Shown piece by piece: positions 10,437 to 59,842 of a stretch of 64,000 bases of DNA (the stretch's first letter is position 1; every line of letters starts with the position of its first letter). The stretch is from Deltaproteobacteria bacterium. Its GTDB lineage: Bacteria > Myxococcota_A > Polyangia > Polyangiales > Houyiibacteriaceae. The position numbers and the translations under genes are program-made. The stretch is taken from the NCBI GenBank assembly GCA_034670305.1, contig JAXMNT010000021.1:57762-121761 (forward strand), written 5' to 3'. The notes under the pieces are model-generated. The model was not told where the DNA came from. It saw only the letters and a list, made by a program, of their open reading frames with translations, and did not search any database.

Positions 10437-11414
10437 ATGCACCATCGGGCGATGGGCCGGAGGTATGTCTCGATCGTCACCGCACCCACCCACGCGAGGC
10501 TGTGGCCGTGGGTGGGGTGGACCCTTGTCGTCTGGACCCTGAGCACGCTCTTCGTGCTCTTCTTCATGCCCGGATTCGGCGGCAGCGGTGGGCCGTGGGT
10601 GCGCCTCCCGATCGCGGTGATGGCGGGCGCGTTCGCCACGTTCTGGATCGTCGGCGTCTTCGGCACGATCATCGCGAACCTTCGAAGCGCCGGTCGCAAG
10701 AAGGCGCTCCAAGACGTGGTCTTGAAAGACGCGACCCTCACCCTGACCGACCCGGTCGAGTGGAAGATTCGACTCCGCGAGCCGCACGACGCGGTGGTGG
10801 AGCTCTCCGGCACCCGAGCCGCGGTGTGTTTCCTTCGACCGGACGAGGACGTGTGGATCCACTGCGACGTCTCGTCGGGCGCGTCCTTTCGCGGTGCGGG
10901 CGACCGGGTGCCGCTCCGCCGCGGCAGCGTGATGGGGTCGGCCGCGCGCAGCGTGGCGTTCGGGGAAGCGCTGCTGAAGTCGCTCGACGAACACCGCGAC
11001 CGGAACAGCTTCCTCGTCTGCCAGGACAAGCTCCGCGGGTTCGGCGCGCGGCCCGCCGCCGTGCCCGACATCGTCCCGATCGATTCGGACGAGGAACGCG
11101 CCGGCACCCCTTACCGAGAGAGCGGCCGACCGGTCCCCGGCGACCCCGAGTTCGAGGCGTGGCTCGAGCGCGAGGGGCTCCGGCTGAGCTCGGCGATCGT
11201 GCTCTCGACCGAGCACCTGGTGGCGCGCTGCAACGACGGAGTGCGGCGGGCGTTTCCGTTGGGTCTGGTCGGGGTGGAGCGCCACCCGGATCGGCTGACG
11301 CTGCGCGTGACGCTGCCCGATGGGAGGCCGGTGGTGCAGTCGGTCACCGAACTCGACTGCGGCGTCCAGGAGGCGCTGGTGCGCTGGACCAAGGCGCTCG
11401 CCGCCGCTCGCTGA
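10437..11414 (+). CDS. Hypothetical membrane protein (two N-terminal TM helices)
   Basis: Two hydrophobic segments and coding-like codons; start could be 10452. Confidence 0.7.
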   Translation: MHHRAMGRRYVSIVTAPTHARLWPWVGWTLVVWTLSTLFVLFFMPGFGGSGGPWVRLPIAVMAGAFATFWIVGVFGTIIANLRSAGRKKALQDVVLKDATLTLTDPVEWKIRLREPHDAVVELSGTRAAVCFLRPDEDVWIHCDVSSGASFRGAGDRVPLRRGSVMGSAARSVAFGEALLKSLDEHRDRNSFLVCQDKLRGFGARPAAVPDIVPIDSDEERAGTPYRESGRPVPGDPEFEAWLEREGLRLSSAIVLSTEHLVARCNDGVRRAFPLGLVGVERHPDRLTLRVTLPDGRPVVQSVTELDCGVQEALVRWTKALAAAR

Positions 11415-11452
11415 GGTTGTGGAGAACGGCGGTTTCGCGTTAGGTCTGCGCC

Positions 11453-12310
11453 ATGCAACAACCTCCGCCGGGACCGCCCGGTTCGCCGGGCATGCAGCCG
11501 GGGTACGGACAACCTCAAGGCCAGGCTCAGGGCCAAGCTCAGGGCCAGGCGCCCGGCGCGATGCAAGGCGCGCCGCCGCCCGCCGCCGCACCTCAGGCGC
11601 CCGCGATGCAGCCCGTCCGCCACGAGATCACGCACGGACCGTCGTTCGCGATGTTGCGGGTGGACCTGCAGCCAGGTCAGACCGTCGTGGCCGAAGCGGG
11701 TTCGATGGTCGCGCGCAACCAGCACGTCCAGATGGACGTGAAGATGAACGCGTCTCCGTCCGCCGGCTTCTTCGCGAAGGTCAAAGCGTTCTTCATCGCG
11801 GTGATCCGGAAGATCGTCGGCGGCGAGACCTTCTTCGTGAACCACTTCACCGCGCCGCAACCCGGCAGCGTGTGGATCGCCCCGACGCTCTCGGGCCAGC
11901 TCACCCACCGGGTGATGAACGGCGAGACGTTGACGCTCAGCACCGGCGCGTTCGTCGCGATGAACGGGCCGCTCGACATGAAGTTGAAGTTCGGCGGCTT
12001 CAAGAGTCTGCTCGCCAAAGAAGGCGCGTTCTTCTTACAGATCAGCGGGCACGGAGAACTCTGGTTCACGAGCTACGGCGGCATCCACGCCATCGACATC
12101 AACGGACCGTTCATGGTCGACAACGGCCACCTGGTCGGCTTCGAGGGCAACCTCGAGTTCAAGATCCGAAGCGCCGGCGGCGGCGTCATGGGGTTCGTCG
12201 CGTCCGGTGAAGGGCTCGTGTGCGAGTTCAACGGCCAGGGCCGGATCTACATCCAATCACGCAACGTCAGTTCGCTCGTCGGCTGGCTCACCCCCCTCTT
12301 GCCGGGCTGA
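11453..12310 (+). CDS. TIGR00266/AIM24 family protein with Pro/Gln-rich N-terminus
   Basis: AEAGSMV, GGETFFVNHF, VDNGHLVGF and SGEGLVCEFNGQGRIYIQSRN motifs. Confidence 0.9.
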   Translation: MQQPPPGPPGSPGMQPGYGQPQGQAQGQAQGQAPGAMQGAPPPAAAPQAPAMQPVRHEITHGPSFAMLRVDLQPGQTVVAEAGSMVARNQHVQMDVKMNASPSAGFFAKVKAFFIAVIRKIVGGETFFVNHFTAPQPGSVWIAPTLSGQLTHRVMNGETLTLSTGAFVAMNGPLDMKLKFGGFKSLLAKEGAFFLQISGHGELWFTSYGGIHAIDINGPFMVDNGHLVGFEGNLEFKIRSAGGGVMGFVASGEGLVCEFNGQGRIYIQSRNVSSLVGWLTPLLPG

Positions 12311-12320
12311 CGAGGACACG

Positions 12321-12998
12321 ATGCAGATCGAAGTTGGATACCGACCGGCCCAAGCCATGGCGCGCGTCGTCTTGGCCGCGGGCGAACAGATCAAAGCCGA
12401 GAGCGGCGCGATGGTGGGCATGAGCACCAACGTGCACATGCAGACCGGCACCCAGGGCGGCGTGATGAGCGGCCTCAAACGTATGTTCGGCGGCGAGTCG
12501 TTCTTTCAGAACGTCTTCACTGCGCAGAACGGTCCCGGAGAGGTCTTGCTCGCGCACTCGCTTTGCGGCGACATCGTGCCGCTCGAGATGACGCAGGCGG
12601 GCTACTTCATTCAGTCGTCGAGCTACATCGCGAGCAACCCTTGGGTGACCTGCGAGACCAAACTCGGCGGCTTCAAGAGCTTCTTCGCGGGCGAAGGTGT
12701 GTTCGTCTTGAAGGCGACCTCGCAGCAGCCGGCGCAAGTGCTGGTCGGCGCGTTCGGCGGCATCCAGGAGCTGCACTGCGATGGGAACCTCGTCATCGAC
12801 ACCGGCCATCTCGTCGCGTGGGACGCGACGCTCGAATACAAGGTCGGCAAGAGCGCGGACGGTTGGATCTCGTCGTTCTTCAGCGGCGAAGGACTCGTCT
12901 GCCACTTCACCGGCCAAGGCCGGATCTGGATCCAGACCCGCAACCCGCAAGAGTACGGCGGCATGATCGGCCGCATGCTCCCGCCGAGGCAGCAGTAG
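12321..12998 (+). CDS. TIGR00266/AIM24 family protein
   Basis: ATG 12321 after GAGGA; AESGAMV, GGESFFQN, IDTGHLVAW and GEGLVCHFTGQG motifs. Confidence 0.9.
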   Translation: MQIEVGYRPAQAMARVVLAAGEQIKAESGAMVGMSTNVHMQTGTQGGVMSGLKRMFGGESFFQNVFTAQNGPGEVLLAHSLCGDIVPLEMTQAGYFIQSSSYIASNPWVTCETKLGGFKSFFAGEGVFVLKATSQQPAQVLVGAFGGIQELHCDGNLVIDTGHLVAWDATLEYKVGKSADGWISSFFSGEGLVCHFTGQGRIWIQTRNPQEYGGMIGRMLPPRQQ

Positions 12999-13000
12999 TC

Positions 13001-13687
13001 ATGAGATACGAACTCCTCGACAAACCCGACTTCGGCATGGTCCGGGCGTACTTCGATCAGCCCGGCGAACAGATGATCGTCGAGTCCAGCGCCATGGTCG
13101 CGCGCGACACCGCGATCGAGATGAAGACCAGCATGCAGGGCGGGCTTCTCAGCGCTGCCAAACGCAAGCTGCTCGGCGGCGAGAGCCTCTTCCAGAACAC
13201 CTTCACGTGCACCCAGCCGGGGCAGCAGCTCTGGCTCGCACCGAACTCCGAGGGCGATCTCATCAACCTCGAGATGGACGGCTCGTACGAGGTGATGCTC
13301 AACAGCGGCGCGTACCTCGCGTCCGTGCCGACGGTCACGCTCGACACCAAGTGGGGCGGCGCGAAGGGCTTCTTCAGCGGCACCGGCTTCTTCTTGCTCA
13401 AGTGCCACGGACAAGGCCCGCTCTTCTTCTCCGCGTACGGCGGCATCCACGCGGTGGACGTCGGTCCCGCCGGCTACATCTGCGACACCTCGCACGTGGT
13501 GGGTTTCACGAGCGGACTGAACTACTCGGTGCAGAAGGTGGGCGGACTCAAGTCGCTCTTCTTCTCGGGCGAAGGCTTGGTCTGCAACTTCCAAGGCCAA
13601 GGCCGGCTCTGGATGAGCACCCGCAACGCGGGCGTGCTCGCGTCGTTCCTGCACCCCTACCGCCGAGTCCAACGCTCCCGAAGCTGA
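13001..13687 (+). CDS. TIGR00266/AIM24 family protein
   Basis: ATG 13001, 2 nt after the previous stop; ESSAMV, GGESLFQNTF and GEGLVCNFQGQG motifs. Confidence 0.9.
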   Translation: MRYELLDKPDFGMVRAYFDQPGEQMIVESSAMVARDTAIEMKTSMQGGLLSAAKRKLLGGESLFQNTFTCTQPGQQLWLAPNSEGDLINLEMDGSYEVMLNSGAYLASVPTVTLDTKWGGAKGFFSGTGFFLLKCHGQGPLFFSAYGGIHAVDVGPAGYICDTSHVVGFTSGLNYSVQKVGGLKSLFFSGEGLVCNFQGQGRLWMSTRNAGVLASFLHPYRRVQRSRS

Positions 13688-13718
13688 GGGGGATTCTCGG
13701 ATGTGCTAGGGCAGCGCC

Positions 13719-16079
13719 ATGCATGTCCGTCCTACCGTGTCCGTTCGCGCCGCAGCCTGCTTGGGCTGCGCGCTCTTGCTCTGGGCAGCGGTGCCAGAAC
13801 CCTCGCACGCCCAGGCGCCTGTCGCGGCGTCGGAGGACGCGGAGGGCGAGGTGGGACGCACCGGTGGGCTGACGCCACTCGCCCGCATTCTCGCAACCGG
13901 TGGGGTGGGCGGCGAGCTCGCGAACCCGATGTGTCGCGACGGGCACACGCTCGACCCGGCCGAGATCGCGCACAACGATGTCTGGCGCCGGCATGCGGAC
14001 CGAAGCGAGACGCTGCTGCTCGACACCGGCGGTCTGCTCGCCCGACACGGGGTCGCCCGGTTCGCCTCGCGCCGGGATCCCGAGGCGCTCGCGGATCTGG
14101 TGCGCGACCTCGGCTACGCGGCGCTCGGGTTCAGCGAGTCGGACCTCGGCGACCCGCGCGAACAGGTGCTGGCGCGGGTCCGTGCGCTTCGGGCGCGCGG
14201 GGTGCGTACCTTCGCGACCAACCTGCGGTGTGAGCCGAGCGCGCAGGCGCTGTGCGACGCGCTGGTCACCGGCGCGTCCGGTGTGCCGATGGTGGAACTC
14301 AGCGGGCAACGCATCGCGCTGCTCTCCTACATCGATCCGGCCGCGTCGGCGCGCGTCGGGCCCGACCGGATGCAGGGACTCCGGCTCGAACCGCTGGTCG
14401 GTTCCATGCGGGCCGGCGTGCGCGCGGCCCGCGCGGCCGGTGCGACGCTGGTGGTCGCGCTCGCCGACACCGGGTACGGGGCGTCGGGGGCGGCGTCCTT
14501 GATCGAAGCAGCCGGTCAACTCGAAGCCGCGGACAAACCGGACGTCGTGTTCGTGTCGGAGGCGGGCTCCGAGATTCTCTTCGCGCGCCCGGTCGGGTTC
14601 CGGCCCGCGATCGTGGCCGCGCCAACGCGCAGCGCGGTCGACGTGCGCATCCGCCGCAACGAAGCGGGCCGCCTCGACATCCTGGCGCAGCCTGCGGAAG
14701 CCGGAGAGCCGCCGCCAGCGTTCGAGCGTTTCGTGCGGCAGGTCGGTGCGGAGTACTGCGGGGAGCTGGGTGCGATCTTGCCGGGCGGGCACATCGACGC
14801 GGCCGAGCCCATGGACGCGGCGGGCATGGTGGCGCTGACGGCCGGGGTCATGCGCGAGGTGACGGACGCCGATGTGGCGCTGCTCAACGTGCACGCCATC
14901 GACGCGCGCTGGCAGATGATCGGAGCCGACCTGACCGCGAGCGACGTGAACATCGCGGTGCAGTACGACGAGCCCTTGATGACAGTCGACGTGCCGGGCA
15001 CGTGGCTGCGCAACCTCGCCCGCACCTCCCCGGAGAACCGGGGCCTGCAGAGCCTGGGTCTGGTGATCACCGGCGCGCTCACGAGCCTCGAGAAGATCAA
15101 GGTCAACGGGCGGGTGCTCGACGTCGACGCGACCTACCGAGTCGTGACGATCCGGTTCTTGGCGGAAGGCGGCGACGGGGGACTCGTTGGACAGGCGGCG
15201 GAGTGGGAGACCACCGAACACACCGTCCGGCAGGCGGTCCTCGATCACCTGGAGATCGAGCGCACCGAAGACCCGCGAGCGGCGCTGACCGACCTGGCCG
15301 AGCAACTCGAATGGACCTTCCGCGTGGGCACCGATCTCACCTTCGCGGGCTCCGCGGTCCAGGATCCGGGCATGTACGCGGAGGGGCCGCTCCAGAACGC
15401 CAACCAGACCCAGTTCGGCCTCAACATCAACTTGGGGCTCAACGCGCTCTCCCGACAAGCGGCGTGGGAGAACACCGTGACCGCGACCTACACGCTCGCC
15501 GCGACCAGCGAGACCGAGGGCTTCGACGAAGGCGCGGACACCATCCTCTACCGAACCAACGCGCAATACCGAGGTCTGCGTGCGCGCCGAGACGAGCTCT
15601 ACGTCCCGGACCTCATCGTCGAAGGGTTGCTGCGCACCGAGTTCACCCGGCAAGACGAACGCGAGACCCACTTCTTGAACCTTCGTTTCACCGCCGGGTT
15701 TCAGTGGCGACTTCACCTCAAGGTGAAGACGAAGCTCCTCGCCGGTTTCGAGATCCTCGACGCCATCGGCAACGACCGCTCGCTCGAGCCGGGCTTCGGC
15801 GCGCAGGTGAACATCGACCCGTGGCTTCTGCTGCGCGAGGGCCTTCGGAAGCTGACGCTCGGTCTGACACTCGACTACTTCGCGTCGGCCCCGCGCGGCC
15901 GCAACCGACACGTGCTGCAGGGGACCTTCGACCTCGATTTGAACCTCAACCGGTTCATCGGACTCGTCGCCAACGTCACCCTCTACGGGCTCCGCGAACG
16001 CGAGATGCCGTTCTCGTTCGCGCTGCAAACGACGATGGGCCTGCGCGTCTCCTTCGTCGGCCGACACGTCACGCGCTGA
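13719..16079 (+). CDS. Secreted degenerate 5'-nucleotidase-like protein fused to a predicted outer-membrane beta-barrel
   Basis: Signal peptide; LLLDTGG, LGYAALG and ATNL; 5'-nucleotidase C-domain DADVALLN...TYRVVTIRFLAEGGDG; about 260 C-terminal aa of alternating amphipathic strands. Confidence 0.75.
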   Translation: MHVRPTVSVRAAACLGCALLLWAAVPEPSHAQAPVAASEDAEGEVGRTGGLTPLARILATGGVGGELANPMCRDGHTLDPAEIAHNDVWRRHADRSETLLLDTGGLLARHGVARFASRRDPEALADLVRDLGYAALGFSESDLGDPREQVLARVRALRARGVRTFATNLRCEPSAQALCDALVTGASGVPMVELSGQRIALLSYIDPAASARVGPDRMQGLRLEPLVGSMRAGVRAARAAGATLVVALADTGYGASGAASLIEAAGQLEAADKPDVVFVSEAGSEILFARPVGFRPAIVAAPTRSAVDVRIRRNEAGRLDILAQPAEAGEPPPAFERFVRQVGAEYCGELGAILPGGHIDAAEPMDAAGMVALTAGVMREVTDADVALLNVHAIDARWQMIGADLTASDVNIAVQYDEPLMTVDVPGTWLRNLARTSPENRGLQSLGLVITGALTSLEKIKVNGRVLDVDATYRVVTIRFLAEGGDGGLVGQAAEWETTEHTVRQAVLDHLEIERTEDPRAALTDLAEQLEWTFRVGTDLTFAGSAVQDPGMYAEGPLQNANQTQFGLNINLGLNALSRQAAWENTVTATYTLAATSETEGFDEGADTILYRTNAQYRGLRARRDELYVPDLIVEGLLRTEFTRQDERETHFLNLRFTAGFQWRLHLKVKTKLLAGFEILDAIGNDRSLEPGFGAQVNIDPWLLLREGLRKLTLGLTLDYFASAPRGRNRHVLQGTFDLDLNLNRFIGLVANVTLYGLREREMPFSFALQTTMGLRVSFVGRHVTR

Positions 16080-52322: not shown

Positions 52323-53981
52323 ATGAGCGGAAGTCTTCGATGGGTTGGGTTCGGGATTGCGGCGGCGTTGCTGGCGGCGGGACTGGGACCGGAACGGGCC
52401 CAGGCGTTCTGCGGCTTCTACGTCGCGGGTGGCAACGCGGAGCTCTTCGCGGACGCGACCTCGGTGGTGATGATGCGCGAGGGCACGACCACCGTGCTCT
52501 CCATGCAGAACGACTACCGCGGTCCACCCGAGAACTTCGCGCTCGTCGTGCCGGTCCCCGAGGTGCTCGACGAGACCCGCGTCAAGACGCTCCCGCGCGA
52601 GGTGTTCGCCCGCGTCGACCAGCTCGCGTCGCCCCGGCTCGTCGAGTACTGGGAGCAGGACCCTTGTGCGCCGGCGGTGCACCGGCATCCGCGGCGCATG
52701 AGGATGCGCAGCGCCGGCTCGGGCATGCGCGGGGCACCGACGGGCGCTGCGGACCTCGGTGTCACGGTCGAGGCGGAGTTCGCGGTGGGCGAGTACCAGA
52801 TCGTCATTCTCTCCGCGGAAGACTCGAGCGGTCTCGACACGTGGCTTCGTCAGGAGGGCTACAACATCCCTGCGGGCGCCGAGCCGCGCCTGCGCCCCTA
52901 CGTCGAAGGGGGATCGAAGTTCTTCGTCGCACGGGTCGATGTCTCGAAGGTGACCTTCGGCGAAGAAGGCATCGCACAGCTCTCCCCGTTGCGCGTGCAC
53001 TACACGAGCGAGCGTTTCGAGCTCCCGATCCGGCTCGGTCTCGTGAACGCCGGCGGGGCACAGGACCTCATCGTACATGTGCTCGCGCGCAACCAGCGCT
53101 ACGAGCTCGCCAACCGCCCGAACGTGACCATCCCCACCAACCTCGACGTCACCGAGTCGGTGCGGGAACGGTTCGGTCCGTTCTACGTGGCGCTCTTCGA
53201 CGAGACGGTGCGGCAGAACCCGAACGCGGTGGTGACCGAGTACGCGTGGCAGGCGACCAACTGCGACCCCTGCCCGGGCCCGGTGCTGAGCATGCAGGAT
53301 CTCACCACGCTCGGCGCCGACGTGGTCGCGCCTGGACAGGCCGTGGCGCCTTCTCCCGGCGGACCTCCAGGCCGCCCCGGCCCAGGACGCAGGTTCCGGC
53401 GCAGCCGTGGCTGGGGCAGCAACTTCGTGCTCACCCGGCTGCATGCCCGCTACACCGCCGACGCGGTCGAAGACGACCTGGTCTTCCGGGCCGCCGAACC
53501 GATCGTCGGCGGACGCGAGTTCCTCAACGACGCCGACCACCTCGAAGAGGGCGCCCGCCCGTCGCACGCGAACAACTTCCAGGGCCGCTACGCGATCCGC
53601 CACCCGTGGGAGGGACCGATCGCCTGCGAAGCGCCGATCCGAAACCGCTGGGGTGGTCCGCCGGCCGGCACCGAGACGCCTGGCACCGCGACGGCACAGA
53701 ACCTCGCGTACGCGCCGCGCGGCTCGGTGCGTTTGCCCGAAGTCGTGCGTTCGCCGATCCCCGAACTCGGCCTGACCGGCACCGATGTCGCGGCGACCGC
53801 TGCTGCGGGCGCGGTGCTGGGTGGAGGGCTCGAAGCCGCCGCGGCGGATGACATCCCTGACCCGCCCGAGGGCGACGAAGCCGCCGGCTGCGGCTGTCGG
53901 ACCGGGTCCGGTGCGCATGGGTTGTGGTTCGGCGCGTTGGCGCTCTTGTGGGGCGCGCGGCGCCGGGGAGAGGTTCGATGA
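52323..53981 (+). CDS. DUF2330 domain protein with MYXO-CTERM sorting signal
   Basis: AFCGFYV, LSMQNDYRGP, TEYAW...CDPC and LTRLH motifs; tail GCGCRT + hydrophobic + RRR. Confidence 0.88.
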   Translation: MSGSLRWVGFGIAAALLAAGLGPERAQAFCGFYVAGGNAELFADATSVVMMREGTTTVLSMQNDYRGPPENFALVVPVPEVLDETRVKTLPREVFARVDQLASPRLVEYWEQDPCAPAVHRHPRRMRMRSAGSGMRGAPTGAADLGVTVEAEFAVGEYQIVILSAEDSSGLDTWLRQEGYNIPAGAEPRLRPYVEGGSKFFVARVDVSKVTFGEEGIAQLSPLRVHYTSERFELPIRLGLVNAGGAQDLIVHVLARNQRYELANRPNVTIPTNLDVTESVRERFGPFYVALFDETVRQNPNAVVTEYAWQATNCDPCPGPVLSMQDLTTLGADVVAPGQAVAPSPGGPPGRPGPGRRFRRSRGWGSNFVLTRLHARYTADAVEDDLVFRAAEPIVGGREFLNDADHLEEGARPSHANNFQGRYAIRHPWEGPIACEAPIRNRWGGPPAGTETPGTATAQNLAYAPRGSVRLPEVVRSPIPELGLTGTDVAATAAAGAVLGGGLEAAAADDIPDPPEGDEAAGCGCRTGSGAHGLWFGALALLWGARRRGEVR

Positions 53982-55579
53982 AGCGGAAGATCGTGTGGCT
54001 CGGGGCGCTGTGTCTGTGCGCGTCGACCGTGTTCGGCTCCGAACGGGTGCGGGCGTTCTGCGGCTTCTACGTCGCGGGTGGGAACGCGGAGCTCTTCGCG
54101 GACGCGTCGATGGTCGTGATGATGCGGAACGGCACCACCACGGTGCTGTCGATGCAGAACGACTACCGCGGGCCGCCCGAGAACTTCGCGCTCATCGTGC
54201 CGGTGCCGGAGGTGCTCGACGAGAGCCGCGTGCATACGCTGCCGCGCGAAGTCTTTGACCGCGTCGACCAGCTCGCTTCGCCGCGCCTCGTCGAGTACTG
54301 GGAGATGGACCCGTGCCAGTTCGAGCGGCCGACAGGGCAGTTCGACGACGAGGTCATGTACGAGAGCGGCGCGGTGCCCGAGCCGACGGCTGTCGCAGCG
54401 GACCTCGGTGTGACGGTGGAAGCGGAGTTCGCGGTCGGCGAGTACCAGATCGTGATCCTGTCGGCCGCCGATTCCTCCGGGCTCGAGACCTGGCTGCGTC
54501 AGGAGAACTACAACATTCCGGACGGCGCCGAAGCGCGCCTGCGACCCTACGTCGAAGCCGGCTCGAAGTTCTTCGTCGCCAAGGTCGATGTCTCCAAGGT
54601 CACCTTCGGGGAAGAAGGCGTGGCGCAGCTCTCGCCGCTCCGGGTGCACTACACGAGCGAAGCGTTCGAACTTCCGATCCGCCTCGGGCTCGTCAACGCG
54701 GCCGGCGCGCAGGATCTCATCGTGCACGTGCTCGCGCGCAACCAGCGTTTCGAGCTCGCCAACCGCCCGAACGTGACCATTCCGACCAACATCGACGTCG
54801 ACGACTCGGTGCGCGACCGGTTCGGACCGTTCTACGTCGCGCTCTTCGACGAGACGGTGCGCCGCAACCCCGGCGCGGTGGTGACGGAGTACGCGTGGCA
54901 AGCGACCAACTGCGACCCGTGCCCCGGGCCGGTCCTGTCGGTCGAAGATCTGACCCTGCTCGGGGGCGACGTGGTCGACGCCGCGGGGAGCAACGGGGAA
55001 CCGGTGAGGCGCCCGTCCGGCTGGGGCAACGACTTCGTGCTGACCCGTTTGCACGCGCGCTACGAAGCATCGGCGGTGGAAGACGACCTCGTCTTCCGTG
55101 CGGCGAACGCGATCGTCGGGGGCCGCGAGTTCAACCACGGACCGAACGGTCTCGAACACGGATCGCGCCCCGACACCGCGAACAACTTCCAGGGCCGGTA
55201 TGCGATCCGCCACGCCTGGGACAAACCGATCACGTGCGAGAACCCGGTGCGGGGCCGCTGGGGCGGACCCTGGGACAACGAGGCAGAGCCTCAGACCCGA
55301 GCCGCGGGCGACCTCGCCTACGCGGATCGCGACGCGGTGCAGTTGCCCGAAGCCGTGCGCTCGCGGGTGCCCGAACTCGAGCTCGCGGCGAGCGCGGCGT
55401 TCGCCGGCGCCGCGCCGACCAACGCACTCACGCAAGGCGAGGCCGACGACGACGCCGACCAGGCCGGTGCGACCGAAGAAGAAGACGACGGCTGTGGGTG
55501 CCGCACCACGCGCGGCTCGGACGCCTTGTGGCTCCTCGCCCTCGGCGCGGTGCTTCTCGCACGCCGCCGCCGGATCTGA
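53978..55579 (+). CDS. DUF2330 domain protein with MYXO-CTERM, tandem paralog
   Basis: ATGA overlap with the upstream stop; same motifs; tail GCGCRTT...LLARRRRI. Confidence 0.88.
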   Translation: MKRKIVWLGALCLCASTVFGSERVRAFCGFYVAGGNAELFADASMVVMMRNGTTTVLSMQNDYRGPPENFALIVPVPEVLDESRVHTLPREVFDRVDQLASPRLVEYWEMDPCQFERPTGQFDDEVMYESGAVPEPTAVAADLGVTVEAEFAVGEYQIVILSAADSSGLETWLRQENYNIPDGAEARLRPYVEAGSKFFVAKVDVSKVTFGEEGVAQLSPLRVHYTSEAFELPIRLGLVNAAGAQDLIVHVLARNQRFELANRPNVTIPTNIDVDDSVRDRFGPFYVALFDETVRRNPGAVVTEYAWQATNCDPCPGPVLSVEDLTLLGGDVVDAAGSNGEPVRRPSGWGNDFVLTRLHARYEASAVEDDLVFRAANAIVGGREFNHGPNGLEHGSRPDTANNFQGRYAIRHAWDKPITCENPVRGRWGGPWDNEAEPQTRAAGDLAYADRDAVQLPEAVRSRVPELELAASAAFAGAAPTNALTQGEADDDADQAGATEEEDDGCGCRTTRGSDALWLLALGAVLLARRRRI

Positions 55580-55580
55580 T

Positions 55581-55801
55581 CCCGCGCTTCGCATGAGTCA
55601 CGACAGCCGATGGTCACCAGGCTTCCTGCCACGTTCTTCTCGGTTCCTTGGGGAGCCTTGAAGAACGCCAGTCGAAACGCGCGACGCCTCTCGTGAGAGA
55701 TGCGGCACGCTCGCTCACTCGGTCGCCCGAGGCTGCTACCTTAGGCCCGTATAGTTACGGAAGGTGTGTACGCTGTTCGAAGTTGGGTCGCGAAGCGCGG
55801 G
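55581..55801. other. ~221-bp structured intergenic element with 12-bp terminal inverted repeats and an rRNA-like segment (candidate ncRNA or REPIN/MITE)
   Basis: CCCGCGCTTCGC at 55581-55592 and GCGAAGCGCGGG at 55790-55801; four internal hairpins; 55735-55760 matches 23S H69-H70 on the minus strand. Confidence 0.6.
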
Positions 55802-55831
55802 GCCGTGAAGGTGGGTCTGTCGAGAGCGCTG

Positions 55832-56572
55832 TCAACCGAAGCGCTCGAGAATCAGCCGCAGTAGCTCGACCACGCCGTCGGTGCCGGCGAGCGGGATCGC
55901 GTTCCAGCCCGCCGGCACATCGGGCCGTTCGTCGCTTGTGACGAAGTAGCCGCAGCCGTGTTCGGCCGCATACGCGATCGCCGGTCGGTCGGTGAGATCG
56001 TCGCCCACGAAGAGCACACGCTCAGCGCCCGTGCGCCGATGCAGATCGCGGAGCGCGTCGCCTTTGTCGCCGACGGTGAGCTCCGCTTCGAACACCGAAC
56101 GTCCGAGGCGCGCATGCAGCCCGAAGGTGCGCGCGACTTCGTCGGCTTGCGCCAGCAACGCGTCGCCGCCCTCCAGTCCGCGCACGTGCACCGCGACCGA
56201 GCTGGCTTTGCGCTCGAGTGTGCCGGCGGTGCCCGAGACCCACGCCGCGAACCCATCCAGGCGCGCTTGGTCCTCGGCGCTGTGCGCGGCGGGCGCGGCG
56301 GTCTCGCCGGGTGCGAACACCCGGCTGCCGTGCTCGACCGCGCGCCATGCGCCGGGCAGCTGGATCATCGTGTCGAGTGCGTTCGCGTCGCGGCCGGTCA
56401 CGAGTGCGACGGACACGTCCTCCAGTGCGACGAGCTTCCGCAGCAGCGCGGTGGTCTCGTCGGGCACGCGTGCGGCGGCCGGGTCCTTCACGATGGGCGC
56501 CAGCGTTCCGTCGACGTCGAGTCCGACCAGCAGCGGAAGGCGCAGGCGATCGAGGTTCGGTTCGCTCGGCAT
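55832..56572 (-). CDS. otsB: Trehalose-6-phosphate phosphatase
   Basis: HAD motifs DVDGTL, VTGR, DKG and GDDLTD; TGATG coupling to otsA. Confidence 0.92.
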   Translation of the reverse strand: MPSEPNLDRLRLPLLVGLDVDGTLAPIVKDPAAARVPDETTALLRKLVALEDVSVALVTGRDANALDTMIQLPGAWRAVEHGSRVFAPGETAAPAAHSAEDQARLDGFAAWVSGTAGTLERKASSVAVHVRGLEGGDALLAQADEVARTFGLHARLGRSVFEAELTVGDKGDALRDLHRRTGAERVLFVGDDLTDRPAIAYAAEHGCGYFVTSDERPDVPAGWNAIPLAGTDGVVELLRLILERFG

Positions 56573-57948
56573 CAGTCGTGTTCGAGCGTGGAGACGAAGT
56601 CGTCGGCCCACTGGTGGACGTCGAGCGCGCGGACCTCTTCGCGGAGCGTGCGCATGCGCTTCTTCTGTTCGCGTTTGGGCATGGCGAGCGCCCGCTCGAG
56701 CGCATCCGCGATCGCGTCCACGTCGTAGGGGTTCACCTGCAGGGCGTCGTCGAAGAAGTCGGCCGCGCCGGCGAACTCACTCAGCACCAGCACGCCGTCT
56801 TCGTTCACGCGGCTGATCACGTACTCGTGGGCGACCAGGTTCATGCCATCGCGCAGCGGCGTCACCAGCGCGACGTCGGCGGCGCGGTAGTGGGCGAAGA
56901 GCGCCCGCTGGTCGAAGTTCCGGTAGAAGTACTGGAGCGGCACGATGCCCGTGCTGGCGAAGCGTCCGTTGATGTCGCCGACGAGCATGTCGATCTCGTT
57001 CTTGAGCTCTTCGTACGCGCGCACGTCGGTCCGGCTCGGGACCATGATCTGGACGAACACGACTTCTTCGCGCGCCTTCTTGTGCCGTGCGAGAAACCGT
57101 TCGAACGCCCGCATGCGTTCGGGAATGCCCTTGGTGTAGTCGAGCCGATCCACCCCGAGCACGATGCGCCTTCCGACGAGCTGCTGGATGCGCGTGGCTT
57201 CCGCGCCGATGTCGTCGGCCTCGGCCAGCTCCAGAAGTTTGTCGACCGGCACGCCGATCGGCGCGGCCATCACCCGCACGGTGCGTTTGCCGACGCGGAC
57301 CGTGCCGCGCGTGCGGTCGACCTGGTGATCGGTGAAGCGGCCGACGCAGTCGAGAAAACAGTCGACGTAGGTCTTCGTGTGAAAGCCGAGCACGTCGGCG
57401 CCGAGCAACCCTTCGAGCAGGAGCTGCCGTTTGGGCAAGATGCCGAAGAGCTCCGCCGGCGGCCACGGCACGTGGCAGAACCAGCCGATGCGGGCGCGCG
57501 CGCGCTTCTTCCGGATCAGCCCGGGCACGAGCATCAGGTGGTAGTCGTGCACCCAGACGAGATCCCGGGTCTGGCTCGCTTCGAGCGTGACCTGGGCGAA
57601 GAGTTCGTTCGCCGCGATGTACGGCTCCCACGGCGCGTCCGACACGGGAATGGTCGTCGGAAAACTGTGCAGGAGCGGCCAGAGGATCGCGTTGCTGACC
57701 CCCATGTAGAAGGCGTCTTGCATCTTGCGGCCGATGCGCACCGATGCGAGGTCGTAGGCGACTTTGGGCTCGCCGACGACGGTCTCGAAGTCCTTGGCCT
57801 GCTTGGCACTGACCCAGACGCCGCCGCGTTGCACCAGCACCGGGTGGAGGGCGGCGACGAGGCCACCCGCGGAACGCACCCAGCGTCCGCCCTCCCGTCG
57901 AAACGGCCCGCGGTTCGAGACCACGACGACCTTGCGCGGTTTCGCCAT
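56572..57948 (-). CDS. otsA: Trehalose-6-phosphate synthase
   Basis: [25 protein letters not shown] and [12 protein letters not shown] motifs. Confidence 0.95.
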
Positions 57949-58015: not shown

Positions 58016-59716
58016 TCAGCGGAGCATGTTGAGGGCGTCGTTGATGTCGGGCAGGTCGGTGTGCCGCATCGTCGTCATCGTGGTCATCGTCGTCATCGTC
58101 GTCATCGTCGTGGGCATGGCGGTCACCGTTGGCTCCATGGTCGTCGGCGGCATCGCGACCACAGGGGGCGTCATGATCGTCGGCTCCATGACGGTCTCCG
58201 CAGGGACGGGCTCCCGCATGGTGATCGTCGGCTCCCGCATGGTGGTCGGCTCCGGCTGCGCCCTCCTGGTGTCGACCACCACCACGGGCTCCATCGTGGG
58301 CGTCTGGACTCGGGCACCACGCGACCGGCCGTGTCGGTCGCGAAGGAGCGTGAACTCCTTCGTGATCGAACCGTCGTCGAGGCGCAGGGTGGTTTCGTAC
58401 GACTCGTACCCCTCGAGTCGGGCCACGAGCCGATGCGGCTCCGCGTCGACCGGACGTTCGATGTCGAGCGGGTTGGAGACGATGTCTCCGTCGAGTTCGA
58501 TCTCCGCGCCCGCAGGCAAGACCCGGATCTGCACCCGCACGAGTTCGGCTGGCTCGACCGGGGGCGGCTCGGGTTCGGGCGGTGGCGCGGCGGCGACCGG
58601 CGCGGGTTCCGGCGTACGAACCGCGAGGTACACGCCGACCCCGAGCACCCCGAGCAGCAGGATCACCAGCACCCCGAGGAGTGCGTTCGACCCACCGCTG
58701 CGGGGCGGCGCCGTCATCGGATGGGGGGTCGGGAGCGCGGGCGCCCTCATCGGCCCTGAGGGCGTGGGCACCTCGCGCGGGGCGGTGGAGGCCATCGCCA
58801 CGTCGTCGGACGACGGCAAGGGGAAGGGGGCGGTCTCTTCGGGCACCACGCTCTCGAACGGTCGCAGCGCGGCCCCGAGCTCGGCGGCGCTTTGAAAACG
58901 ATCGGCCGGCTCCTTCTGAAGACAGCGCGCAACGATCGCGTAGACCTCGGGCGGCAAGCCCGGTCGAATCGGCTCGAGGGGCGGCGGCGGTTCGATGCAG
59001 ATCTTCACGACGAGGAGCGGAAACGACTCGTCGTCGAACGGGACCTTGCCCGCCAACGCTTCGTACAGGATCACGCCGAGGGCGTAGATGTCTGCGCGGT
59101 GGTCGACGTCGGACTTCCCCTGCGCCTGCTCCGGCGACATGTAGTAGGGCGTGCCCATCACCGTCCCGGTGCGGGTGAGTTTGCTCGGGCCCGCCGCCAC
59201 CTTCGAGATGCCGAAATCGAGCACCTTCACGAACAAGGGATCGCGTCCGCGTTTCGTGAGGTAGAGGTTGTCGGGTTTCAGGTCGCGGTGGACGATGCCC
59301 TTCTCGTGGGCGGCCTGGAGCGCGTCGCAGGCCTGGACGAGGATGTGCGCGACTTCGCCGAGCGCGCGCATCGGGTGTTCCGCGAGCAGATCGCCGAAGT
59401 CCTGACCGTCGAGGAACTCGAGCACCATGAACTCGGCCCCGTCCGGGAACCGCCCCATGTCGGTGCACTCGATGATGTTCGGATGTCCGATGGCCGAGGC
59501 CGCCTCGGCTTCACGTCGGAACCGGGCGACGACCTCTGCGTGGGTGGCGAGCTGCGCGTGCAGACACTTGATGGCGACGCGCTTGTGGATGAGCACGTGC
59601 TCCCCTTCGTAGACCGCACCCATCCCGCCTTCGCCGATCTTCCGAACGATGCGGTAGCGGTCCTGAAGGACCATGCCGATCCGGGGATCGACGGCGGGGG
59701 AACTCGCGGCACTCAC
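58016..59716 (-). CDS. Membrane Ser/Thr protein kinase with a PEGA-like domain and Thr/Met-rich tail
   Basis: GEGGMG, VAIK, HRDLKPDN, DFG and GTPYYMSPE motifs; TM helix; PAGAEIELDG; (TTM)n. Start approximate. Confidence 0.9.
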   Translation of the reverse strand: MSAASSPAVDPRIGMVLQDRYRIVRKIGEGGMGAVYEGEHVLIHKRVAIKCLHAQLATHAEVVARFRREAEAASAIGHPNIIECTDMGRFPDGAEFMVLEFLDGQDFGDLLAEHPMRALGEVAHILVQACDALQAAHEKGIVHRDLKPDNLYLTKRGRDPLFVKVLDFGISKVAAGPSKLTRTGTVMGTPYYMSPEQAQGKSDVDHRADIYALGVILYEALAGKVPFDDESFPLLVVKICIEPPPPLEPIRPGLPPEVYAIVARCLQKEPADRFQSAAELGAALRPFESVVPEETAPFPLPSSDDVAMASTAPREVPTPSGPMRAPALPTPHPMTAPPRSGGSNALLGVLVILLLGVLGVGVYLAVRTPEPAPVAAAPPPEPEPPPVEPAELVRVQIRVLPAGAEIELDGDIVSNPLDIERPVDAEPHRLVARLEGYESYETTLRLDDGSITKEFTLLRDRHGRSRGARVQTPTMEPVVVVDTRRAQPEPTTMREPTITMREPVPAETVMEPTIMTPPVVAMPPTTMEPTVTAMPTTMTTMTTMTTMTTMRHTDLPDINDALNMLR

Positions 59717-59842
59717 CGGAACAAGACCAAGGTAGGCGCTCACACCTTGGTGGGTCAACGCGCACTGCCGCCGTTCGCCGCCCCGCCGGTCTTCCTCCCG
59801 AAAGGTGCTGCCTTTTTCGACCGACGCGCGCAAAAAGACGCG

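Follow-up and report, generated by a model that had tools for sequence, protein, structure and literature searches.

What is a fragment of 23S ribosomal RNA (rRNA) sequence doing between the ends of two convergent protein-coding genes in the genome of a Polyangiales bacterium? The question is raised by a 64,000-nucleotide (nt) stretch of DNA, hereafter the window, from contig JAXMNT010000021.1 of the assembly GCA_034670305.1; the genome, designated G000, amounts to 7.93 megabases (Mb) in 105 contigs, and the window is located on its contig C21. As argued below from comparison of sequences, the minus strand at 55578–55804 probably harbors the gene of a stand-alone, ~225-nt Y-RNA-type partner of the protein Ro60, the inner part of which would mimic helices 69 and 70 (H69–H70) of 23S rRNA.

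The 23S-like stretch reads CCGTAACTATACGGGCCTAAGGTAGC on the minus strand of 55735–55760. The single 23S rRNA gene of the same genome (contig C85, positions 11277–14289, minus strand) reads CCGTAACTATAACGGTCCTAAGGTAGC at its positions 2020–2046, and the two agree in 25 of 27 columns, with one gap and one mismatch; the original prediction had given the same 25 of 27, and the genome's own 23S bears it out. The stretch corresponds to ~1906–1935 of the E. coli molecule (~1908–1934 for the window copy). On the Rfam structure line of the own 23S, it covers helix 69, the C-UAA-G triloop and the single-stranded GUAGC running toward the pair that encloses H70/H71. That the match lies outside any rRNA gene, as claimed, also holds: Rfam models gave no match in the window at gathering scores, nor at 55500–55900 at E values up to 10.

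Taken alone, the window copy is hardly impressive. BLAST with uniform scoring gives the stretch E = 1.5 against the whole genome and 8.8e-4 against the 23S alone; 106 other places in the genome match the rRNA operon with at least the same bit score, and a filter for long near-exact matches, applied to the BLAST of the operon against the genome, did not retain the stretch. Since the stretch is AT-rich within a genome of 68% G+C, uniform scores understate the match. A seed-and-verify scan of the 7.93 Mb outside the operon with all 27-mers of the 16S and 23S rRNA on both strands (the 16S–23S internal transcribed spacer, which has tRNA-like matches elsewhere in the genome, was left aside) returned exactly one place within two edits, the window stretch itself. 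A significance check against rRNA had been proposed together with the prediction; the values are weak for the window copy on its own and reach ~1e-12 for its homologs in G012 and G047.

These homologs were recovered in several ways. A blastn search of 41 relatives revealed a homologous intergenic block in G012, a genome of the same family (E 2.8e-23), and extending the search to all 88 family genomes brought up another one in G047. A further blastn match, in G004, fell in a coding region and was discarded as chance, as was the second match of a first pattern run over genome contigs (an AT-rich cyanobacterial coding region, the true one being in G012). The exact pattern occurred only in G000 and G012 among 401 Myxococcota genomes, it gave no match in viral contigs, and blastn of phage records found none. 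A pattern combining the 3′ part of the 23S-like stretch with the hairpin following it recovered four metagenome contigs, L019–L022: L022 is a close relative with the same neighbors as in the window, L019 is distinct, and L020 and L021 are identical over the compared stretch. A covariance model of the element built on six sequences (R1) later found more. It detected the element in 11 of the 151 Polyangiales genomes and in 4 of the 151 Cyanobacteriota genomes sampled, and it scored two of the metagenome contigs from the pattern scan as well. The four cyanobacterial loci with the element are designated L039–L042; the further Polyangiales matches that were read (L044–L047, G631 and G700) each contain the 23S-like stretch.

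In all nine homologs compared with the rRNA operon of G000, the best rRNA match is the same 23S site (16/18 to 30/30). G012 and G047 are identical to 23S in 30 of 30 positions (E ~1e-12), the others being the window copy (25/27), L019 (24/25), L042 (26/28), L041 (25/27), L040 (17/18), L021 (17/17) and L039 (16/18); as read by eye, L045 has 29 nt identical to the 23S of G000, and L044 and L046 have one mismatch each. When the 30-mer of G012 was used as a blastn query, it led to 23S genes of 625 records for plasmids or chromids (622 at ≥99% identity), and exactly those 30 bases were covered among the matches listed. No second rRNA region recurred among the nine homologs, and the test for a longer 23S fragment or pseudogene yielded one stretch of 17–30 nt per homolog, other matches being scattered and at most 11 nt long (one of 13). 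A wider similarity to 23S, suspected from the 8-mer CTTCGAAC and a “5′-end-like” piece, was ruled out as scattered short words.

Across phyla (Polyangiales and Cyanobacteriota), no part of the RNA is better conserved than the 23S-like stretch, and the stems flanking it vary freely. It is highly improbable, then, that the stretch lacks a function, being a chance match or a piece of ribosomal DNA or an ectopic homing-endonuclease site patched in and carried neutrally. Such an origin would agree with the unremarkable uniform BLAST statistics of the window copy and with the similarity spanning only ~30 nt; it would not account for the conservation, for the stretch being the sole match of its kind in the genome, or for the absence of an intron or endonuclease signal (Rfam at E values up to 10; Pfam in the flanks). 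The suggestion that rRNA sequence was captured by a mobile element fares no better, as only ~30 nt are 23S-like and no mobile-element genes flank the locus. The same applies to a connection with the I-CeuI/group I intron target site: there is no Rfam intron match and no endonuclease open reading frame (ORF) in the flanks, where the Pfam types are DUF2330, trehalose-phosphatase, kinase, RCC1 and uridine kinase.

The flanking genes also bear on the autonomy of the element. They are a DUF2330 gene and a trehalose-phosphatase-like gene in the window, a kinase-like gene in G012, and RCC1-repeat and uridine-kinase-like genes in G047; because the flanks differ in the three genomes, the block is to be regarded as a unit of its own. 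No synteny of otsB and DUF2330 genes was detected in G012 and G047. It is exceedingly improbable, therefore, that the block acts in cis, as a 3′ untranslated region or terminator, on the otsA/otsB-like operon or the convergent DUF2330 gene. The element does fill the 252 nt that separate the ends of these convergent genes, and L022 is arranged alike, but the homologs in G012, G047 and other loci have unrelated neighbors and no terminator was called. Judged by its conservation and predicted structure, the element is a conserved structured RNA gene and not a stray rRNA fragment.

The conserved block 55578–55804 is apparent in the homolog alignments, and R1 scores 106 bits on 55705–55803. The 5′ and 3′ ends can form a closing helix of 13 pairs, four of which have changed on both sides within a set of five sequences; 95% of the cells are paired, vs. 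26–45% in a control with the partner strand slid, and the helix is readable in the cyanobacterial copies with other letters. A local hairpin at the 5′ end, considered instead of the closing helix, was rejected since its register was inconsistent across homologs, except for L021 with its clear 11-base-pair local hairpin. From the 5′ closing strand on, the order is a CGCG-CCC-AC motif, UACAYAC and then the 23S-like stretch. The motif CGCGACCCAAC was aligned across the Y-RNA-like units of contig C5 of the same genome, the cyanobacterial elements and their neighbors; UACA and C43 are invariant in this 5′-module alignment.

Two inner helices complete the core. The pair counts for both come from a 10-sequence alignment which was fitted to R1 and hence favors the structure of the model: 87.5% of the cells are paired in the ACCU/AGGU helix, and 100% in the GNRA-capped hairpin, where two pairs show changes on both sides. 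The stem of the latter occurs in at least six versions (CUCGG/CCGAG, UUCGA/UCGAA, GGCGA/UCGCC, CGGG/CCCG, GUCCC/GGGAC and CCGC/GCGG), and its loop is always GNRA across the homologs (GCGA, GUGA, GCAA or GAGA). Thus, a check of conservation and covariation in homologs, which had been suggested for this locus, turned out positive for the closing helix and the GNRA-capped hairpin. An H69-like hairpin is possible in the Polyangiales copies and in L042, its closing pair being G-U in G012 and G047 and U-G in the window and L022. In the variable middle part, L022 has an inner hairpin free of mismatches, GGCUCC-GAAA-GGAGCC, the loop of which is of the GNRA type on the 23S-sense strand. In every full-length homolog that was read, as in the neighboring YrlA-like RNAs, the 3′ closing strand comes after ACUUG or ACUCA.

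Upstream of the element, the genes differ among the window, G012 and G047, yet all three have GGTTGACA unchanged. TTGACA is found upstream of the element in L019 and L022 as well, and in G047 the stop codon of an unrelated upstream gene also falls inside the TTGACA box. The −10-like hexamer stands at equal spacing in the three genomes (CACCTT in the window, CATCTT in G012 and CACTTT in G047). These boxes suggest that the RNA may be transcribed from a promoter of its own.

Which strand is the functional one? The minus strand folds better than its shuffles (z = −3.59), and the plus strand does about equally well (z = −3.38); as both strands beat the shuffles, the strand assignment rests on loop and wobble evidence and on genomic context rather than on folding energy. 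The GNRA loops, the G-U pairs and the GGCUCC-GAAA-GGAGCC hairpin of L022 exist only on the 23S-sense (minus) strand, which is also the strand of the adjacent Y RNAs and Ro60 genes in eight of eight adjacent loci. The element thus appears to be a sense-oriented, structured RNA that would be transcribed from the minus strand. An antisense RNA to the subunit interface had been proposed as one option, i.e., that the plus strand is functional and pairs with rRNA or its precursor through up to 30 nt of perfect complementarity to 23S H69–H70. A pairing RNA would be expected to preserve exact complementarity, as is the case over 30 nt in G012 and G047, and the plus strand is as stable as the minus one. 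Against this stand the shared orientation with YrlA-like RNAs and Ro60 genes, the minus-strand-only loops and wobble pairs, the conserved TTGACA on the minus strand, and indels or mismatches that break the complementarity in the window, L039 and L040 copies, which makes an antisense role very unlikely.

The original prediction also reported that the 23S-like stretch overlaps a sequence resembling the decoding region of 16S rRNA (the 1392R site). The letters are there, 13 of 15 agreeing with GTACACACCGCCCGT of the own 16S, and the significance is not: 263 places in the window match an own-16S 15-mer equally well, so the match carries no weight and is at chance level. The idea that the two pieces reflect pairing across the intersubunit bridge B2a rests on this chance-level match. 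The conserved UACACAC of the 16S-like piece is, in fact, a motif of the Y-RNA-like 5′ module.

The connection with Ro60 comes from the genomic neighborhood of the homologs. The element adjoins a gene of a known or predicted Ro60-fold protein, on the same strand, in eight loci: L019, L021, L039–L042, G631 and G700. In L021, the order is a YrlA-like RNA, the element, another YrlA-like RNA and then a 555-amino-acid (555-aa) gene with TROVE and Ro60-vWA domains; at 61.5 bits (E 3.8e-12) and 42.9 bits (E 8.9e-7), the two Rfam YrlA matches stay under the gathering score of 69. L020, which overlaps L021, has 25 transfer RNA (tRNA) genes upstream on the same strand (L020:3636–5951); from a DUF1559 gene, one may guess that its contig is planctomycete-like. 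In L019, a YrlA-like match and the element are followed by a 479-aa ORF without Pfam matches, the homolog of which (46% identity, E 7e-114) resides on contig C5 of G000. In G631 and G700, a TROVE ORF of the same orientation precedes the element by 110–200 nt.

In the four cyanobacterial loci, a homolog of the 487-aa protein described below (54–59% identity) is encoded 1.3–2 kilobases (kb) downstream of the element, and tRNA-like or YrlA-like RNAs are nearby, all on the strand of the element. The RNA that directly follows the element in L041 resembles YrlA (E 2.5e-4, from a search of 261 nt) and shares its outer module with the element. L040, L041 and L042 each display, after the element, a second RNA with an equal outer module and an inner T-arm-like hairpin, accompanied by a D-arm-like piece in L040 and L041 and by an element-like GNRA hairpin in L042. 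Further upstream in L042, a 15-gene tRNA array (L042:73–1782) precedes the cluster of Y RNA, element and Ro60 gene on the same strand. The same contig encodes a methyltransferase–HIT fusion near the Y RNA/Ro60 locus (L042:3885–4745, minus strand) and a gene of the poly(A)-polymerase/CCA-adding type (L042:11031–11999); a link of these neighbors to RNA repair is possible. No conserved partner was found among the genes downstream of the Ro60-like genes.

In G000 itself, neither PF05731 nor PF25045 (TROVE included) had a match, and the classical Rsr protein of L021 retrieved nothing as a query. There is, in its place, a divergent 487-aa protein (G000:C5:124231–125691; L028:5232–6695, L028 being the region of contig C5 around this gene), which is predicted to adopt the Ro60 fold, a ring of HEAT repeats plus a vWA domain. 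Pfam finds in it only a weak VWA_2 match, and a sequence search of the PDB gave no match. Its AlphaFold model was computed from a 21-sequence alignment, with a mean predicted local distance difference test score of 77.5. In the fold search with this model, Ro60, Rsr or TROVE-domain structures occupy each of the first 12 PDB ranks (E 3e-12 to 7e-9; template-modelling score 0.59–0.69 over the full length), and isolated vWA domains rank after them. The family of the 487-aa protein counts more than 2,336 members from Myxococcota, Cyanobacteria and Armatimonadota, which share ~60% identity and are publicly annotated as “vWA domain-containing” or hypothetical only.

The gene for the 487-aa protein is preceded by a weak match to YrlA and by three tRNA-like genes whose anticodons are odd. 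This region (L028:3843–4815) comprises at least four tandem Y-RNA-like units, which contain the 5′ module of the element and the ACUYG-plus-closing-strand 3′ end. The outer module common to the element and the Y-RNA-like RNAs includes CGCG-CCC-AC, UACAYAC and ACUUG. ARAGORN reads three of the units as tRNAs, Met-CAT, His-ATG and Lys-CTT, the last two being unusual-looking; by the same kind of reading, G012 has a Lys-CTT and a 72-nt “SeC-TCA”, and L040 has one “Pyl-CTA”. These odd readings are probably tRNA-like domains of Y RNAs and not decoding tRNAs. Between the Y-RNA-like cluster and the predicted Ro60-fold gene, at L028:4960–5080, ~20 GGCTTC hexamers, including a few variants, are lined up.

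Co-occurrence points in the same direction. Among the 151 Polyangiales genomes (the samples for R1 and for TROVE are taken as the same since their family denominators are identical), a TROVE gene is present in 10 of the 11 element-bearing genomes vs. 30 of the 140 others (one-sided Fisher p = 6e-6, computed over related, i.e., not independent, genomes). The eleventh is G000, with the divergent protein instead of TROVE. Five element-bearing genomes lack a homolog of the divergent protein, and all five possess TROVE; G012 has both. Among the original suggestions, the “rRNA-mimic RNA” is supported: the 23S-like stretch is located in a conserved, structured, sense-oriented RNA, of which it is the best-conserved part across phyla.

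Several observations weigh against the view of the element as a Ro60 partner carrying a 23S mimic, besides the model-fitted alignment and the stable plus-strand fold already mentioned. At the window, the predicted Ro60-fold gene is on another contig (C5 vs. C21); in G012, the distance from the element to the Ro60-type gene is 115 kb, and the G047 copy is also far from one, so that a same-strand Ro60 gene within a few kb, by which Y RNAs are recognized in PMC4201824, is found at the eight homologous loci and not at these three. In seven of nine further Polyangiales carriers, the element and TROVE matches fall on different contigs, and in four of the seven family genomes with the Ro60-fold protein, R1 found no element. 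The YrlA model (RF02553) had no match on the element at E values up to 10, the YrlA-like matches, all below the gathering score, falling on the neighboring RNAs only; no exact copy of the bacterial Ro60-binding motif GNCGAAN0-1G was spotted by eye in the basal module of the element. As a lead only, the 23S-like stretch contains GGUCCUA, one base off the vertebrate motif GGUCCGA. A consensus scan called neither a promoter nor a terminator at the element.

The extent of the mimicry has to be qualified as well. The 5′ strand of H69 is absent from L019, L021, L040 and L041, so the full H69 hairpin is not a feature of the family, the core of which begins at the H69 loop, includes the 3′ strand of this helix and extends into the first bases of H70. 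In most lineages, the stem of the GNRA hairpin is not 23S-like either. Consequently, the mimicry is secure over only ~25–30 nt. The window copy itself departs from 23S by an indel and a mismatch, and its inner hairpin is mismatched where that of L022 is perfect; it could be a slightly decayed copy.

The same evidence leaves some room for another explanation, in which the RNA would operate without Ro60, as a decoy or sensor for a nuclease or modifying enzyme attacking 23S H69–H70, and its position next to Ro60 and Y RNAs would come from a common island for a “damaged translation apparatus”. In favor of it, conservation coincides with the rRNA-like stretch, tRNA mimics and, in two cases, long tRNA arrays (25 genes in L020 and 15 in L042) are present at the loci, and the RNA often stands alone in Polyangiales; in addition, a bacterial RNase is reported to cut eukaryotic ribosomes at H69 (abstract of PMC13189344). 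Still, no nuclease, toxin or immunity gene is consistently nearby, a decoy acting on its own would have no use for the outer module that the RNA shares with the Y-RNA-like RNAs, and 11 of 11 carriers in the sampled order have a gene of the Ro60 family. We consider a Ro60-independent decoy improbable and retain the Y-RNA-type partner of Ro60 as the probable explanation.

The coordinates of the predicted RNA, its parts and the two flanking genes are collected in Table 1.

Table 1. Predicted RNA gene with its parts and flanking genes (positions in the window).
Feature	Position	Strand	Basis or remark
DUF2330 protein gene, convergent with the RNA, outside the element	53924..55579	+	Pfam PF10092, E 4.7e-59
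Trehalose-phosphatase-like (otsB-like) gene, upstream, outside the element	55832..56611	-	Pfam PF02358, E 5.9e-19
Whole predicted small RNA, ~225 nt	55578..55804	-	Ends deduced from promoter-like boxes and closing helix
-35-like box TTGACA	55830..55835	-	Overlaps TGA stop of otsB-like gene
Putative weak -10-like hexamer CACCTT	55808..55813	-	16 nt after the -35 box
Closing helix, 5′ strand	55789..55801	-	Pairs with 55581-55593
5′ basal-module motif CGCGACCCAAC	55782..55792	-	Common to Y-RNA-like genes (alignment)
UACACACC, the “16S-like” piece, part of the 5′ module	55763..55770	-	ACCU can pair with AGGU 55738-55741
H69-like hairpin U-CCGU / AACUAU / ACGG-G	55746..55761	-	Loop one base shorter than in 23S
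23S-like stretch	55735..55760	-	Own 23S positions 2020-2046
GNRA-capped hairpin CUCGG-GCGA-CCGAG	55718..55731	-	Where H70/H71 follow in 23S
Small hairpin UCUC-UCAC-GAGA, variable middle part	55689..55700	-	Minimum-energy fold; L022 differs in loop only
Stem-loop CGUUCUUC...GAAGAACG around GGCUCC-CCAA-GGAACC	55632..55667	-	Minimum-energy fold
GACUCA and closing helix 3′ strand (55581-55593)	55581..55599	-	Pair counts

The DUF2330 gene of the table is one of two tandem paralogous genes of this type (52323–53981 and 53924–55579; the Pfam scan refers to the second only). The C-termini of the DUF2330 proteins, with a Gly-Cys, a hydrophobic stretch and an Arg-rich end, resemble the MYXO-CTERM sorting signal. 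On the other side, in the minus-strand region 55832–57948, the ORF before the phosphatase gene resembles trehalose-6-phosphate synthase by eye, the two ORFs overlapping by 40 nt; further upstream (58016–59833, minus strand), an ORF resembles a Ser/Thr kinase by eye.

As for the integrity of the assembly, one contig from the sequencing run X1, possibly the source of this DNA, spans 55200–56200 without differences. In run X5, from another study, ~90%-alike contigs cover 55202–55665 and 55677–56017, i.e., both junctions; L022, an independent metagenome contig, has the same order of otsB, element and DUF2330. Since the gene order recurs and contigs of another study cover both junctions, a misassembly is unlikely.

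What is known of related RNAs gives the element its place. According to Chen et al. 2014 (PMC4201824), characterized Rsr-containing bacteria encode two or more Y RNAs close to rsr, and YrlA imitates tRNA; through Y RNAs, Ro60 is tethered to other proteins and its cavity is gated; Rsr is involved in 23S maturation and rRNA decay, the Y-RNA-free form maturing 23S rRNA in heat stress and the bound Y RNA being inhibitory. The Ro60-binding motifs given there are GGUCCGA for vertebrates and GNCGAAN0-1G for bacteria. Compared with YrlA (RF02553; PMC4201824), the element similarly lies next to or not far from Ro60/Rsr genes of the same orientation, often in a row of several such RNAs; its ends likewise pair in a basal stem, and an outer module is followed by a domain imitating a stable RNA of the translation apparatus. 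In contrast to YrlA, the imitated molecule is 23S H69–H70 and not tRNA, and the element is about twice as long; it escapes the YrlA covariance model, GNCGAAN0-1G is not seen in it as such, and many Polyangiales copies are unlinked to a Ro60 gene and seem to have a promoter of their own. YrlB of Salmonella and M. smegmatis and Yrn2 of D. radiodurans, compared by their description in PMC4201824, are alike in being extra Ro60-linked RNAs beside YrlA without a full tRNA-like domain.

Copies of rRNA pieces are familiar from another context. Ribosomal-protein leaders and the 23S-methyl motif also present a short piece of rRNA to an rRNA-binding protein. They are cis-acting mRNA leaders beside the regulated gene and mimic shape more than sequence; the element, unlike them, is free-standing, has up to 30 identical bases, and matched no Rfam family. 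The original itself, domain IV of 23S (RF02541, with H69, the CUAAG triloop, the GUAGC linker and H70/H71), has the same sequence over ~25–30 nt; the H69 hairpin can form in the Polyangiales and L042 elements, and a hairpin follows at the H70/H71 position. The rest of 23S is absent from the element, and the internal loop of H70 together with the loop of H71 is replaced by a short GNRA hairpin with a stem free to vary.

A tentative scheme of operation may be drawn from these features. The paired 5′ and 3′ ends would form the closing helix flanked by the motifs shared with the Y-RNA-like RNAs of the same loci, and this common basal module would bind the predicted Ro60-fold protein encoded on contig C5. 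The inner domain would expose the copy of H69 and the strand leading into H70, followed by the GNRA hairpin, in place of the tRNA-like domain of YrlA. The 23S-like module may then serve as a pseudo-substrate, occupying or gating the site of the protein for 23S rRNA. Alternatively, it may be a handle recruiting a factor that recognizes this part of the 50S interface, an option suggested by analogy with YrlA, whose tRNA-like module is thought to engage tRNA-binding proteins. A broader generalization is conceivable although doubtful: bacterial Ro60 proteins might use a dedicated Y RNA displaying the 50S side of the subunit interface, which, along with the tRNA-mimic Y RNAs and spare tRNA arrays of the same loci, would constitute a set of baits by which the Ro60 particle docks to ribosomal subunits or to the enzymes and toxins that target these.

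Full-text searches, in a collection where subscription papers are thinly covered, turned up no account of a Y RNA resembling 23S; the supplementary tables of PMC4201824 may list some of the loci as YrlA hits. The main text of PMC8421152 and PMC10272220, which deal with cyanobacterial tRNA arrays, contains no mention of Y RNA, Ro60 or 23S. The RNA family is absent from Rfam 15, and R1 could serve to annotate it.

The finding also exposes a widespread family of putative Ro60-fold proteins that is annotated solely as “vWA domain”, as suggested by the one member folded, which is encoded behind Y-RNA-like genes. So far, the only recognized effector module of bacterial Y RNAs is a tRNA mimic; a second module copying up to 30 bases of 23S rRNA would give a concrete and testable link between Ro60 and the ribosome. 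If the broader and doubtful generalization given above is true, the Y RNAs would represent a general system of mimics of the translation apparatus, and Ro60 would be tied directly to the surveillance of the ribosomal decoding center.

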